Assembly: GCA_964489525.1 (NCBI GenBank)
Contig: CAZAYY010000015.1
Location: 34,091-98,090 of the forward strand
Origin: an uncultured Anaerolineales bacterium
GTDB taxonomy: Bacteria; Chloroflexota; Anaerolineae; Anaerolineales; JABWBV01
Reading direction: 5' to 3'
Length of the DNA stretch: 64,000 nt
Under the pieces are notes generated by a model. That model saw nothing but the letters and a program-made list of their open reading frames with translations. It had not been told where the DNA came from and searched no databases. Positions 18,063 through 29,913 of the stretch are shown here, piece by piece; within the stretch, counting starts at the first letter, position 1, and the number at the start of each line of letters is the position of its first letter. The translations under genes were made by a program, and so were the position numbers.

Positions 18063-19304
18063 ATGCGAATTGCGATGCTTTCATACCACACCTGCCCACT
18101 GGCAACCCTGGGCGGCAAAGATACCGGGGGAATGAATGTATATGTGCGCGAGCTGACCCGCCACCTCGGAGAGCTGGGTGTGCAGGTGGATGTGTTTACC
18201 CGTTCACAGGATGAACATGTGCCCCATGTACTGCACGACCTGGGTTATGGCAACCGAATTGTCCACATTCCAGCAGGTCCAGAGGTGCCCCTCCCCAAGG
18301 AGGAACTGATCGGCCACATCCCATCCTTTGTGGAAGGCATTCTGGAATTTGCAGAACGAAAAGGGATCACCTACGACCTGGTCCACAGCCATTACTGGAT
18401 GTCGGGGATGGCGGCTCGGGAATTAAAAAAAGCCTGGAGTGTGCCGGTTGTGCACATGTTTCACACCCTGGGGCACATGAAAAACCGGGTCGCTGGCCTG
18501 GGCGAAGCCGAAGGCGCTTACCGAATCGATGGCGAGATGGCGGTGCTGGACATGGCAGACCGGATTGTGGCCGCTACACCAGCCGAAGTTGCCCAGCTCC
18601 AGTGGCTGTACAACGCCCAAAAAACAAAAATCGTTGTCATCCCACCTGGTGTAGATTTAAGCCGCTTCTATCCCATTCCAAAAGATGAAGCCAAGGAGTT
18701 TACCGGGGTTCCGAAAGAGCAACACAACATTTTGTTTGTCGGCCGGATTGAGCCCCTGAAAGGAATTGATACCCTGATTCGGGCAATGGCCTTGATGGAA
18801 GCGAACCATAAAGACATCCTCGAAGAACAGCCCATTTGCGTCGCCATTATTGGCGGCGACCCAGGAGCATCGCCCGAAACCATGTCGGCAGAAATGAGCC
18901 GGCTGCAGGCCCTTCGGTTGGAATATGGCGTCAAAGAAATGGTCAATTTCCTGGGAAAACGAAGCCAGGACAGCCTCCCTTACTATTATTCCGGGGCAAG
19001 CATTGTGGTTATGCCTTCCCACTACGAATCTTTTGGAATGGTGGCGTTGGAGGCGATGGCCTGCGGCACGCCTGTGGTTGCCTCGCAGGTAGGCGGGTTA
19101 GCTTTTTTGGTGCGCGATGGGGAGACCGGATACCTCACCCCAGGAGATGACCCGGACGCGCTGTGCAAACGCATTGTGGCCCTGTTAAAAAGCAAACCTT
19201 TGCGAGACCAAATGGGCCGCCAGGCAGCTGAATATGCCCGGCAGTACAGCTGGAAAAATGTTGCTGAAAAAATCCAGGGGCTTTATGGGGAATTGGTGGG
19301 CTAA
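18063..19304 (+). CDS. GT4-family glycosyltransferase (MshA-like retaining glycosyltransferase)
   Basis: 413 aa. MRIAMLSYHTCPLATLGGKDTGGMNVYVRELTRHLGELGVQVDVFTR resembles the MshA/GT4 N-terminus. The C-terminal E-x7-E region is SHYESFGMVALEAMACGTPVV. Confidence 0.85.
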   Translation: MRIAMLSYHTCPLATLGGKDTGGMNVYVRELTRHLGELGVQVDVFTRSQDEHVPHVLHDLGYGNRIVHIPAGPEVPLPKEELIGHIPSFVEGILEFAERKGITYDLVHSHYWMSGMAARELKKAWSVPVVHMFHTLGHMKNRVAGLGEAEGAYRIDGEMAVLDMADRIVAATPAEVAQLQWLYNAQKTKIVVIPPGVDLSRFYPIPKDEAKEFTGVPKEQHNILFVGRIEPLKGIDTLIRAMALMEANHKDILEEQPICVAIIGGDPGASPETMSAEMSRLQALRLEYGVKEMVNFLGKRSQDSLPYYYSGASIVVMPSHYESFGMVALEAMACGTPVVASQVGGLAFLVRDGETGYLTPGDDPDALCKRIVALLKSKPLRDQMGRQAAEYARQYSWKNVAEKIQGLYGELVG

Positions 19305-20116
19305 ACCCCACCCTGCTGGCGCATTACCCGGCCTGTACCGCCGCGTTGGATTTGAATAATTTGCGCCAGGATGCTCACTGCGATTTCTTCCGGCGTTTCG
19401 GCGTTCAGCTCCAGGCCAACCGGGGAGAAAATCCGGTCGAGCTGGTCTTTGCCGATGCCTTGCTCCAGCAGCGCAGCGGTTGTGGTTGCCCACCGCCGGC
19501 GAGAACCAATCACGCCAATAAACGCGGCTGAAGTCTGAAGCAGAGCAGGCAGGCCCGCGATGTCCACCCCGGCATTCCGCGTGGTAAGAACCAGGAAAGT
19601 ATGGGGGGTAATGGCCAGTAAATTGGGAATTTCGGCCAACGATACGGGCAGGTATTCATCGGCACCTGGTGCCACATCCGGGGTGCAAAATTCAGGTCGG
19701 TCGTCTGAAACCACCACACGAAAGCCCAACCACCCACCCAGGTGGGCAACCGCCTTGCCAACATGCCCCATTCCAACCACAACCAGGGTTGGGCGAGGAA
19801 AAACCGGTTCAATAAAAACTGCAACCGTACCGCCGCACACACCCGGGTCGCCCCGGGCCGGGTCCACCATGCTGAACTGCAGGGTTTCTGGCTGCCCGGT
19901 TTTCAGGGTTTGTTGGGCAGTTTGAATCACCCGGGCTTCCAATTCTCCGCCGCCAACGGTTCCCATAATCGTTCCATCCGGGAAAAACAACATCTTGCTG
20001 CCAACCCGGCGGGGTGTTGAACCCCGGCTGTTGATAATGGTGCATAAAACACAAGGCTGACCGCTGGCTTCTACGGCTGCCAACTTCTGATAAATGGGTT
20101 CAGAGCCAGGATGCAT
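19301..20116 (-). CDS. XdhC/CoxI-family molybdenum-cofactor insertion accessory protein
   Basis: 271 aa. The N-terminal XdhC_CoxI motif is CVLCTIINSRGSTPRRVGSKMLFFPDGTIMGTVGGGELE. The Rossmann-like C-terminal part is LVVVGMGHVGKAVAHL. Confidence 0.8.
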   Translation of the reverse strand: MHPGSEPIYQKLAAVEASGQPCVLCTIINSRGSTPRRVGSKMLFFPDGTIMGTVGGGELEARVIQTAQQTLKTGQPETLQFSMVDPARGDPGVCGGTVAVFIEPVFPRPTLVVVGMGHVGKAVAHLGGWLGFRVVVSDDRPEFCTPDVAPGADEYLPVSLAEIPNLLAITPHTFLVLTTRNAGVDIAGLPALLQTSAAFIGVIGSRRRWATTTAALLEQGIGKDQLDRIFSPVGLELNAETPEEIAVSILAQIIQIQRGGTGRVMRQQGGV

Positions 20117-20119
20117 GGC

Positions 20120-28122: not shown

Positions 28123-28884
28123 CTACATTTTTTCAAGCGTTTCTAATGCCCGTCGGGCCAAAACTGGCCCAACGGCCAACCGGTATTCCGCACTTGCCCA
28201 GGCATCGGTGGCGTTGGCACACACACTTTCGACCGCAAAAGGAACCCCCCCAGGTTCAGGAGCATCCAGGGCAAGCCGCGGAGCGTGGCCAAAGCCACCC
28301 ACAACCACCCGCAGCCGCCCGGAAGGCCAACGGGCAATCGCCACTGCAAGGATCGGCCGGTCTGCAGGCGTACGGGCAACAGATTCATAAGCCAGGGAAG
28401 CCCTGCGCTGAATGGATAGGGCCGTTATCAGGCGGCCTGGCAGTATACTGGTACGGGCGTTAAACAGGTCGCCCAACGGCACAACTGTATCGCCCGGCAG
28501 CAGGGTAAGCTGGGCATCGAGGGCCAACATGGCAGCCGCAAAAGGCGAGCGGCCATCCGCACTCACCAGGGTCCCGGCAACACTGGCCTGCTGGCGCAGG
28601 TTGTGGTTTGCCTCCAGACGAATAACCCGGGAAAGTTCTGGTTGAATGCCTGGGGCAGTCAGAAGAGTTTCTAAATGGGCGGCAGCGCCAATTTCAAACG
28701 CGCTGCCTTGCTGGCGTATGGCACCCAAACCCAGGTTTTGCAGGTCTACCACGGCAAAAGGGTCTGCGGCCGTTTGAGCTGCCAACACAGTCCCCCCAGC
28801 CAGGGGCAGGGTTTGCGGGGCTGGCCGGGCCAGCAGCTCAAGGGCTATTTCTAAAGAATCGGGCCGGTGATATTCAACGTACAC
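28123..28884 (-). CDS. FAD-binding subunit of a xanthine-dehydrogenase-family molybdoenzyme (CoxM/YgfM-like)
   Basis: 253 aa. YHRPDSLEIALELLAR...LPLAGGTVL is the N-terminal signature of the molybdopterin-dehydrogenase FAD-binding domain. It is short, similar in size to YgfM-type subunits. Confidence 0.8.
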   Translation of the reverse strand: MYVEYHRPDSLEIALELLARPAPQTLPLAGGTVLAAQTAADPFAVVDLQNLGLGAIRQQGSAFEIGAAAHLETLLTAPGIQPELSRVIRLEANHNLRQQASVAGTLVSADGRSPFAAAMLALDAQLTLLPGDTVVPLGDLFNARTSILPGRLITALSIQRRASLAYESVARTPADRPILAVAIARWPSGRLRVVVGGFGHAPRLALDAPEPGGVPFAVESVCANATDAWASAEYRLAVGPVLARRALETLEKM

Positions 28885-28911
28885 GCGAAACCTCCTGAAA
28901 CAAGATTAGCG

Positions 28912-29913
28912 CTAAATGCCGCTGGAAAAGGTATCTACCAAAAGGTGAACATCGCCGCCCACCGGGTACAAGATGGGACAGGTGCAGCCGCGATCCACAT
29001 ATTCCTTTACTTTGGCTCGGGCTTCAGCGGGCGTGCCGGAGGCCGTAATCCGCTCGATGAGGGCTTCGGGAACCAGGTGCTTGGCTTTTTCAATTTGTTC
29101 ATGCGTGGCAGGCCAACCCAGAATGGATTGAATTTGCTCAACAACATCGGTGGATACCCCTGAAGCCTTGGCAATGTGGGGCTGTTGGGCAAGGTACTGG
29201 CATAACAGGCCGCGGGTGGTGTCAAACGCTTTATCGTGATCGTGGTCCACCGAACAGACAATTAGCTGCGGCCGGTCCAGGTCGTAAACTGAACGACCAG
29301 CCCGGCGCGCACCCGCATCCAGCTGCTGCATGGCATCATCATTGTATTCGGGCGGAACACAGTAATTCAGCACAACGCCATCGGCAATTTCTCCGGTCAT
29401 TTCCATCATTTTCGGACCGGTTGCGCCAATCATAATGGGCACATGACGGGGTTCGCGCCGGCCATGCACGACATCCAGTTCAATACCCTGGACCTGGATA
29501 AATTCTCCCTCAAAAGTCACTCGCTCCATATTGAGCAGTTTTCGCAGCACCAACACCGTTTCGCGCATGGCGGTCAGCGGATTTTTGCGGTGGATTCCCA
29601 CGTTGCGCGCCAGAGGGTCCCACCAGGCACCCAGGCCGCAAATCATCCGGTTGGGGGCGAGGTCATCCAGGGTGAGGAAGGTGGCAGCCAGCAGCCCAAT
29701 GTTGCGGGTCCAGTTGTTAATCACCCCCGACCCAACTTTCAGCCGCTCCGTGACAGCAGCATAGGCAGCCATAGGCACAATGGCATCGCGCACAAGTCGC
29801 GATTCTGCCTGCCAGACTGCTTCGAAACCCTTTTGTTCCGCGTAGCGGACATATTCCAGGCCGTCTCGCAGGTCGTGGGCGTCTTGTAAATAGAGCGCAA
29901 TACGGTTGGTCAT
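28912..29913 (-). CDS. LLM-class (luciferase-like) flavin/F420-dependent oxidoreductase
   Basis: 333 aa with RBS GGAGGA 8 nt upstream. Sequence pattern of the luciferase-like monooxygenase / methylene-H4MPT-reductase-like family ([16 protein letters not shown]..., [25 protein letters not shown]). F420 use is inferred from the neighbouring F420 genes. Confidence 0.8.

Follow-up and report, generated by a model that had tools for sequence, protein, structure and literature searches.

What does a molybdenum (Mo) hydroxylase act upon when its genes are interrupted by those for a peptidase and a signalling protein? This question is raised by a cluster of minus-strand genes in a 64-kb stretch of DNA from an uncultured Anaerolineales bacterium of the phylum Chloroflexota (contig CAZAYY010000015.1, positions 34,091 to 98,090), which is hereafter called the window. 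The enzyme core of the cluster consists of a flavin adenine dinucleotide (FAD)-binding subunit, a fused iron-sulfur and Mo subunit (the FeS/Mo fusion) and an XdhC-family chaperone. It is led by a gene for a protein of the luciferase-like monooxygenase (LLM) family and is interrupted by genes for an M16C peptidase and for a nucleotide cyclase joined to a STAND-type NTPase (cyclase-STAND). Our preferred interpretation, which we hold with a little more confidence than doubt, is that the locus encodes the upper half of the reductive uric-acid (2,8-dioxopurine) pathway in an Anaerolineae version, with the M16C and cyclase-STAND genes residing in variable slots.

An initial annotation of the window had recognized only the six genes from LLM to XdhC (19301-29913). 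The list of open reading frames (ORFs) contains these as six ORFs of 333, 253, 970, 1000, 687 and 271 amino acids (aa), separated, in the direction from LLM to XdhC, by 27, 5, 8, 10 and 3 nucleotides (nt). Proteins in the databases that are identical to the FeS/Mo fusion and to the cyclase-STAND protein are 999 and 685 aa long, respectively, and the M16 ORF carries another ATG at codon 4, so the actual spacing may exceed these values by 3-9 nt. The sizes, spacing and shared strand of the unit were thus reproduced, and its domain assignments are supported by Pfam with the exception of TPR repeats in the 687-aa protein, for which no TPR family is matched by Pfam at E <= 1e-3. The boundary drawn at the LLM gene did not stand, because SsnA and the genes for biosynthesis of the F420 side chain and for F420 regeneration lie directly upstream on the same strand and had been missed. 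Eight further minus-strand genes, mostly 2-21 nt apart or overlapping, extend the cluster to a 14-gene array at 19301-36622 (Table 1). A convergent GT4 glycosyltransferase gene overlaps the XdhC gene by 4 nt, and we therefore take the array to end there. The Nudix hydrolase gene at the other end is found upstream of SsnA likewise in three relatives (L004, L006 and L010; comparison loci are cited by such numbers throughout).

Table 1. Genes of the minus-strand array, in order of transcription, and a structured spacer within it
Feature	Position	Strand	Basis
Nudix hydrolase (Nudix_N + NUDIX); first gene of the array	35945..36622	-	Pfam
SsnA amidohydrolase, ring-opening enzyme of the 2,8-dioxopurine pathway	34571..35923	-	NCBIfam NF005540, TIGR03314
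Fno/NpdG, NADPH-dependent F420 reductase	33875..34549	-	TIGR01915 188 bits (cut-off 149.8); Pfam F420_oxidored
CofE, F420-0:gamma-glutamyl ligase	33120..33872	-	Pfam PF01996, 251 bits
F420-dependent PPOX-class oxidoreductase	32617..33111	-	TIGR03618 95.8 bits (cut-off 79.05)
Nitroreductase-fold protein, FbiB C-terminal domain-like	32001..32642	-	Pfam Nitroreductase; TIGR03553 136 bits, under cut-off 249.55
CofD, 2-phospho-L-lactate transferase	30938..31891	-	Pfam PF01933, 162 bits
CofC, guanylyltransferase	30282..30941	-	Pfam PF01983, 119.6 bits
Three hairpins between CofC and LLM; possibly a terminator or a processing region	30120..30261	-	Inverted repeats 30231-30261 (11 nt, perfect), 30174-30207, 30120-30163
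LLM oxidoreductase, F420 class; putative F420H2-dependent 2,8-dioxopurine reductase	28912..29913	-	PF00296, 218 bits
Short YgfM-like FAD-binding subunit, 253 aa	28123..28884	-	Pfam FAD_binding_5 only
M16C (PreP-like) zinc peptidase, 970 aa	25205..28117	-	Pfam Peptidase_M16 + M16_C + M16C_assoc + PreP_C
XdhD-like 2x[2Fe-2S] + molybdopterin fusion; putative uric acid/2,8-dioxopurine oxidoreductase	22194..25196	-	Pfam Fer2 + Fer2_2 + Ald_Xan_dh_C + MoCoBD_1/2
Class III nucleotide cyclase + AAA_16 (STAND-type) NTPase, 687 aa	20120..22183	-	Pfam Guanylate_cyc + AAA_16
XdhC-family Mo cofactor insertion/sulfuration chaperone; last gene of the array	19301..20116	-	Pfam XdhC_CoxI + XdhC_C

The reductive uric-acid pathway was worked out only in 2025, in gut Proteobacteria and Firmicutes. 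The portions of the report by Li et al. (2025, PMC12507026) on which we draw describe uric acid's reduction to 2,8-dioxopurine ('yanthine') by XdhD-YgfM, the reduction of this product by YgfK and the subsequent opening of the ring by SsnA. They also already note that, in Chloroflexota, an F420-dependent luciferase-like enzyme replaces YgfK/UacX. The same pathway, together with a selenium-dependent 2,8-dioxopurine dehydrogenase (DOPDH) of Clostridia, was described independently (bioRxiv 10.1101/2025.04.24.650524).

The upstream part of the array fits this pathway. Its SsnA protein exceeds the cut-offs of two dedicated models (NF005540, 504.3 bits against a cut-off of 444; TIGR03314, 470.7 bits against 455.5) and is 35% identical to Escherichia coli SsnA over its full length. 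A set for F420 biosynthesis and regeneration, comprising CofC, CofD, CofE and Fno, is present in the window (Pfam and TIGR01915 matches, all above cut-off); FO synthase (CofG/H) was not found, as the Pfam and NCBIfam scans, which left some window ORFs uncovered, gave no Radical_SAM or FbiC-type match. The initial annotation had considered the substrate of the Mo enzyme to be open. With SsnA and the F420 genes in view, and with the 2025 literature as far as it is summarized above, uric acid becomes the likely substrate. Two genes for M20 dipeptidase-type paralogues flank the array, at 14695-16056 on the minus strand and 38125-39729 on the plus strand, and an M20 gene adjoins SsnA also in L011, L039 and L041. 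These paralogues are not orthologues of YgeY as judged by BLAST; YgeY is likewise an M20 protein, and the paralogues could thus serve as the ureido-cleaving step.

The LLM protein is a candidate F420 enzyme. Each of its best 15 matches among NCBIfam models is to an LLM family of the F420 type (Mer, 171.7 bits), every one below its cut-off, and flavin mononucleotide-type families score at most 38 bits; its best matches in the PDB are Mer enzymes. The protein is 73-84% identical in relatives, and in two loci without CofC (L079 and P0157) its gene still stays beside the FAD and FeS/Mo genes.

The Mo enzyme itself has the layout of XdhD-YgfM, in which an N-terminal FeS domain is fused to the Mo subunit and a separate, short FAD subunit is encoded nearby. 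The initial annotation had proposed this architecture, and alignments support it. The FeS/Mo fusion aligns with E. coli XdhD over its full length (1-954 against 2-996; 36% identity, 597 bits), and the FAD subunit matches YgfM alone among E. coli proteins (27% identity over 248 aa), with XdhB not matched. Membership of the fusion in the Mo-hydroxylase family is evident from its Ald_Xan_dh_C, MoCoBD_1 and MoCoBD_2 domains and its two [2Fe-2S] domains, all of which score above their Pfam cut-offs. All eight Cys ligands of both [2Fe-2S] clusters are present and are invariant in 15 aligned sequences, and the catalytic Glu near the C-terminus is retained, with 'KAVAEIP' of the window aligned to 'SLGEPP' of XdhA and 'SISEIG' of XdhD. 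XdhD residue E606 is highlighted in PMC12507026, and the loop carrying it reads 'IGEGKAP' in XdhD and 'WSEGRAP' in the window; XdhA carries a deletion at this point, as do the second Mo enzymes of relatives described below. The XdhC protein scores above the cut-offs of XdhC_CoxI (90.5 bits) and XdhC_C (127.5 bits) and does not reach the equivalog models TIGR02964 and NF045664. For the equivalents of bovine F1009 and A1078, which are cited by the DOPDH preprint, the PDB alignment begins at bovine residue 1010 and its register is uncertain by one residue, and we draw no conclusion from them.

In E. coli XdhD (L081, 25317-28187), the N-terminal 'FeS' domain retains none of the eight Cys ligands (0/8, versus 8/8 in the window fusion), and in relatives of the L019 type the four Cys residues of the first cluster, and of that cluster only, have been lost.

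From gene content, family membership and synteny we infer the substrate, the direction of the reaction and the use of F420 as follows. A Mo-hydroxylase that interconverts uric acid and 2,8-dioxopurine would be built from the YgfM-like FAD subunit together with the XdhD-like FeS/Mo fusion, and XdhC would mature this enzyme. The F420-class LLM protein would take the place of YgfK/UacX by reducing, and so dearomatizing, 2,8-dioxopurine with F420H2, after which SsnA would hydrolyse the reduced ring. CofC, CofD, CofE and the protein resembling the C-terminal domain of FbiB would make F420, and Fno would recharge it from NADPH. The M16C and cyclase-STAND proteins, which would be vertically inherited in a sub-lineage and co-transcribed with the enzyme genes, are probably dispensable for the enzyme chemistry.

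Several observations weigh against this assignment. The FeS/Mo fusion is equally close to XdhA (36% identity), which itself lacks an FeS domain, and it falls short of the cut-offs of TIGR03313 (708.2 against 1101.9 bits) and of the models for XdhA. TIGR03312 is likewise not reached by the FAD subunit (59.5 against 241.5 bits), so orthology to XdhD and YgfM at the sequence level is unproven. The NCBIfam equivalog models gave no named orthologue group for the Mo, FAD, LLM or XdhC proteins; the LLM protein lies under every NCBIfam cut-off, and its role with 2,8-dioxopurine is putative. Moreover, DOPDH is selenium-dependent and is accompanied by YqeB and YqeC, and the YqeB/YqeC genes of relatives adjoin a second Mo enzyme, which could be the true DOPDH. 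Finally, BLASTP searches with the E. coli proteins (1e-5) revealed no homologue of HyuA, YgeW/UacY, YgeY or YgeX in the 64-kb window, which leaves the lower pathway unaccounted for.

Some of these observations would also be expected if the Mo enzyme were an ordinary oxidative xanthine or hypoxanthine dehydrogenase, or a dehydrogenase of some other N-heterocycle or aldehyde, that is unrelated to the LLM and SsnA proteins and lies near the F420 genes through inherited synteny. Its equal identity to XdhA and XdhD, a score of 697 bits with the XdhA model NF043082 that comes near the cut-off of 780, and an XdhC chaperone of the kind typical of sulfurated xanthine dehydrogenases all suit this alternative, and the best PDB relative of the fusion, 4-hydroxybenzoyl-CoA reductase, illustrates the broad chemistry of the family. 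The second Mo-hydroxylase set follows XdhC in many relatives (L001, L006, L011, L033, L170 and others) and is lacking from the window. It comprises an FAD and FeS fusion (~475 aa), a hydrophobic protein of ~125 aa without a family, a DUF6909 protein of ~575 aa that is present in many loci, a Mo-only subunit of ~740 aa, YqeB and a YqeC-MocA protein. This second enzyme could be the selenium-dependent DOPDH, or it could instead be the xanthine dehydrogenase. However, in its fused architecture, its short YgfM-like FAD subunit and its E606 loop the window enzyme agrees with XdhD and differs from XdhA, and the LLM gene tracks the FAD and FeS/Mo genes even in loci without F420 biosynthesis genes. A further argument comes from L001 (4369-8370) and L007 (4811-8675), in which a fusion of PreT and PreA resembling dihydropyrimidine dehydrogenase (DPD-like; 788-834 aa) and an SsnA paralogue lie directly upstream of the FAD-FeS/Mo pair. 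This order matches that of E. coli ygfK-ssnA-ygfM-xdhD and thereby supports the functional assignment of the pair; in L007, no LLM gene was found within 10 kb upstream. We consequently regard the ordinary dehydrogenase as improbable, and we retain the uric-acid assignment as the preferred one.

A neighbourhood survey, which had been suggested along with the initial annotation, places the arrangement in a wider context. The proteins of the window were compared by tblastn with 80 Anaerolineae loci from species-representative genomes, all ORFs were clustered, and each count is given over the loci with enough flanking DNA. The FeS/Mo fusion has thousands of homologues of ~75% identity labelled Anaerolineae or Chloroflexota. 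Among the 45 loci with at least 8 kb upstream of the FeS/Mo gene, the FAD gene is present upstream in 40, and the LLM, CofC and SsnA genes in 18 each; the FAD gene directly adjoins FeS/Mo in 30 of the 68 loci with at least 0.9 kb upstream. XdhC is found within 8 kb downstream in 32 of 51 loci (at least 8 kb downstream). The order that recurs is SsnA-Fno-CofE-(PPOX-nitroreductase)-CofD-CofC-LLM-(thioesterase)-FAD-FeS/Mo-...-XdhC. By comparison, an M16C gene lies directly upstream of FeS/Mo in 10 of 60 loci (at least 3.2 kb upstream), and a cyclase-STAND gene lies directly downstream in only 1 of 66 (at least 2.5 kb downstream). The order FAD-M16-FeS/Mo is seen in a metagenome-assembled genome that bears the label Anaerolinea thermophila (L064).

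The gaps between FAD and FeS/Mo and between FeS/Mo and XdhC behave as variable slots among relatives. Among their other occupants are an N6/N4 DNA methylase that carries a RAMA domain, a DUF559-like gene, a membrane protein resembling a phosphodiesterase, a 7TM-PAS-HD-GYP protein and a DHH-CBS-DHHA2 pyrophosphatase-like gene. The last of these is the commonest occupant of the slot between FeS/Mo and XdhC (L050, 14889-16232, and 32 other loci) and is lacking from the window; four loci (L162, L164, L167 and P0157) have it after the cyclase gene. Two relatives that carry the cyclase (L163, 1910-2812; L164, 1117-2025) have a gene for an arginase-family ureohydrolase between M16 and FeS/Mo.

The initial annotation had allowed that the six-gene layout might be unique to this strain, and a rearrangement that arose recently in this strain, or an artefact of assembly, would account for a cyclase gene in the slot in a single species-representative genome of the 66, as well as for the spacer between CofC and LLM that is peculiar to this genome. 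However, the order M16-FeS/Mo-cyclase-XdhC is repeated exactly on an independent 909-kb contig (L170), and partial versions occur in many genomes, so the layout is inherited rather than specific to the strain. The M16 and cyclase genes display no anomaly in GC content or in GC content at third codon positions, and M16 and FeS/Mo appear to have diverged together, with pairwise identities that correlate at r = 0.96 (10 loci). A rough neighbour-joining tree groups the window with L008, which has the cyclase, with L079 and L015, which have M16, and with L013, which has neither, and it contains a large clade with the order methylase-M16-FeS/Mo. The comparative data already contradict a rearrangement or artefact, which we judge to be very improbable. 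By these comparisons, the inserts are old, are vertically inherited in a sub-lineage and have been lost repeatedly, and no recent rearrangement is indicated.

Whether the two inserted proteins contribute to the system is a separate matter. The M16C protein has the four-domain architecture M16/M16_C/M16C_assoc/PreP_C and an HxxEH site, its zinc motif HIMEH (residues 62-66) and an NEMKG segment being invariant in nine orthologues. The cyclase-STAND protein, of ~690 aa, represents a well-conserved Chloroflexota family; its metal-binding and transition-state motifs (FADLKGFT, DKHLGDG and GDTVNVASRLQ) are intact and are accompanied by an AAA_16 domain. The joint presence of an M16 peptidase and a match of the cyclase protein to TIGR03903 raised the prospect of a cluster for a ribosomally synthesized, modified peptide (RiPP) or a thiazole/oxazole-modified microcin. 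We rejected this candidate, as the match covers the cyclase and AAA region only (187 against 705 bits) and genes for a precursor and a cyclodehydratase are both lacking.

In a functional reading of the inserts, the STAND domain would sense a ligand derived from purine or urate, or the nucleotide state of the cell, and cyclic AMP (cAMP) emitted in response would control the pathway, and M16C may process a peptide or mature the enzyme. Reverse searches bear on this proposal in both directions. Among 11 cyclase orthologues examined in this way (50-57% identical), seven lie immediately after a fused FeS/Mo gene, L008 provides one more case, and three of the seven have a 4-nt overlap between the FeS/Mo stop and the cyclase start. 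This degree of slot sharing exceeds what is expected of a random passenger, and it counts as a point against the passenger component of our preferred interpretation. The catalytic residues of the cyclase are intact, the HD-GYP and CBS-DHH pyrophosphatase proteins that share its slot are nucleotide-signalling or pyrophosphate enzymes, L170 repeats the full order, and L164 has M16 two genes upstream. In addition, the adjacency of M16 to FeS/Mo persists across ~28% FeS/Mo divergence. However, most FeS/Mo loci lack both inserts, the other four cyclase orthologues reside in unrelated signalling or respiratory contexts, and, among 80 metagenomic M16C homologues (37-57% identical), FeS/Mo follows in only 4 of the 46 with at least 3 kb downstream, leaving 42 without it; the FAD gene precedes M16C in 8 of the 80. 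Unrelated blocks (SPFH, Nnr and AOR) are equally syntenic in Anaerolineae, and thus adjacency within the class is weak evidence. To our knowledge, there is no precedent for M16 peptidases in the maturation of Mo cofactor enzymes.

We accordingly consider a functional part for the cyclase-STAND protein, and possibly for M16C, to be unlikely. Slightly less probable still is a more elaborate version, in which a sub-lineage of Anaerolineae would have the cyclase-STAND protein hard-wired in the operon as a generator of cAMP that responds to purine or urate, possibly with the CBS-DHH pyrophosphatase and HD-GYP proteins, thereby coupling purine catabolism to cyclic-nucleotide signalling, and in which M16C could have a role dedicated to the Mo enzyme. 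Because the Mo enzyme usually occurs without either insert, both are most likely long-resident passengers in variable slots; for the cyclase, the slot preference of 7/11 leaves room for a regulatory role. The initial annotation had presented the M16 and cyclase genes as part of a distinctive make-up. The layout is conserved in a sub-lineage, but these genes do not characterize the enzyme system, given that most relatives lack them.

The six genes from LLM to XdhC probably form one operon. We infer co-transcription from their shared strand and from gaps of 3-27 nt, which leave no space for terminators between them. Scans for signals cannot decide the matter, since neither exceeds what is obtained with shuffled sequences: promoter-like sites number 10 versus 8.3 +/- 3.1, and terminator-like matches, which are located within coding sequence, number 26 versus 20.1 +/- 4.7. 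A promoter-like site upstream of the LLM gene (GTGACA-17-TACAAT, 30077-30049 on the minus strand) matches 10 of 12 consensus positions, and a weaker one lies at the junction of FAD and M16 (28136-28107). The first is situated in the spacer between CofC and LLM (29914-30281), which is 368 nt long in this genome; in relatives the two genes look adjacent as judged from tblastn match coordinates. The spacer has a predicted RNA fold of -56.6 kcal/mol (z = -3.74), and an Rfam search of it gave chance-level matches only, with no Mo cofactor or purine riboswitch. As its hairpins are followed by the promoter-like site, the LLM gene may begin its own transcript in this genome.

If these assignments are correct, the reductive uric-acid pathway of environmental Chloroflexota appears to be run on F420 in its upper half, with the genes for synthesizing and recharging the cofactor in the same array as its putative users. 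This would provide a physiological role for F420 in Anaerolineae, a new F420-dependent heterocycle reductase, and a counterpart, of the sulfur and XdhC type, to the DOPDH that depends on selenium. In its recurrence, the cyclase-STAND gene would be a testable lead as to how the little-studied Anaerolineae might regulate purine catabolism.

The remainder of the window contains other features of interest. A Liv/Urt-like ABC transporter (41017-46743, plus strand; a binding protein, two permeases and two ATPases) is encoded near the cluster. A run of purine biosynthesis genes (57566-63871, minus strand; IMP dehydrogenase, PurH, PurM and PurD) lies ~28 kb from the putative purine-catabolic cluster. 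A T-box leader (53981-54265, minus strand; 93.8 bits, just above the gathering score) is located upstream of a gene for an ileS-like class I tRNA synthetase with a DUF5915 tail (50472-53888, minus strand), and the presence of such a leader is consistent with the phylum Chloroflexota. Large genes at 1744-11022 on the minus strand code for an M23 peptidase/PPC protein of 1345 aa, a PD40-repeat protein of 818 aa and, at 932 aa, a fusion of an RNase_T exonuclease and a DinG-like helicase.

The window M16C protein shares domain order, the HxxEH motif and a length of ~970 aa with PreP/Cym1-type M16C peptidases. We liken the cyclase to bacterial cyclase-AAA_16 (STAND) proteins such as those of the mycobacterial Rv0386 type, with which it has in common class III catalytic motifs followed by an AAA_16 NTPase; the window protein differs from such signalling proteins in lacking a detectable TPR or HTH output domain. 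We know of no link between either family and Mo-hydroxylase operons.

The E. coli ygfK-ssnA-ygfM-xdhD module resembles the window in having an SsnA orthologue, a short YgfM-like FAD subunit, a Mo subunit with an FeS-like domain fused at its N-terminus and a Glu loop equivalent to that of E606, all in one cluster on one strand. Identities are just 27-36%, however, and the window has no YgfK, an F420-class LLM protein being encoded instead, with F420 biosynthesis genes and Fno between SsnA and this reductase. Its fusion keeps the eight Cys residues that E. coli XdhD lacks, it has XdhC and not YqeB, YqeC or MocA nearby, HyuA, YgeW, YgeY and YgeX are missing from its surroundings, and the M16C and cyclase-STAND genes are inserted. 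The Clostridial DOPDH ('XdhAC'), encoded with YqeB, YqeC and SelD, has no YgfM subunit and needs selenium, whereas the window has an XdhC-type chaperone; the two enzymes have in common an FeS domain fused to the Mo subunit and, as proposed, the reversible reaction from urate to 2,8-dioxopurine. A further counterpart is the Chloroflexota variant of PMC12507026. The co-located F420 biosynthesis and Fno genes, the variable slots and the M16C and cyclase-STAND inserts go beyond what the cited portions of that report mention, and the window, which brings together SsnA, an enzyme of PF00296 and one of the XdhD/YgfM type in a single Anaerolineae neighbourhood, appears to be an instance of this variant.

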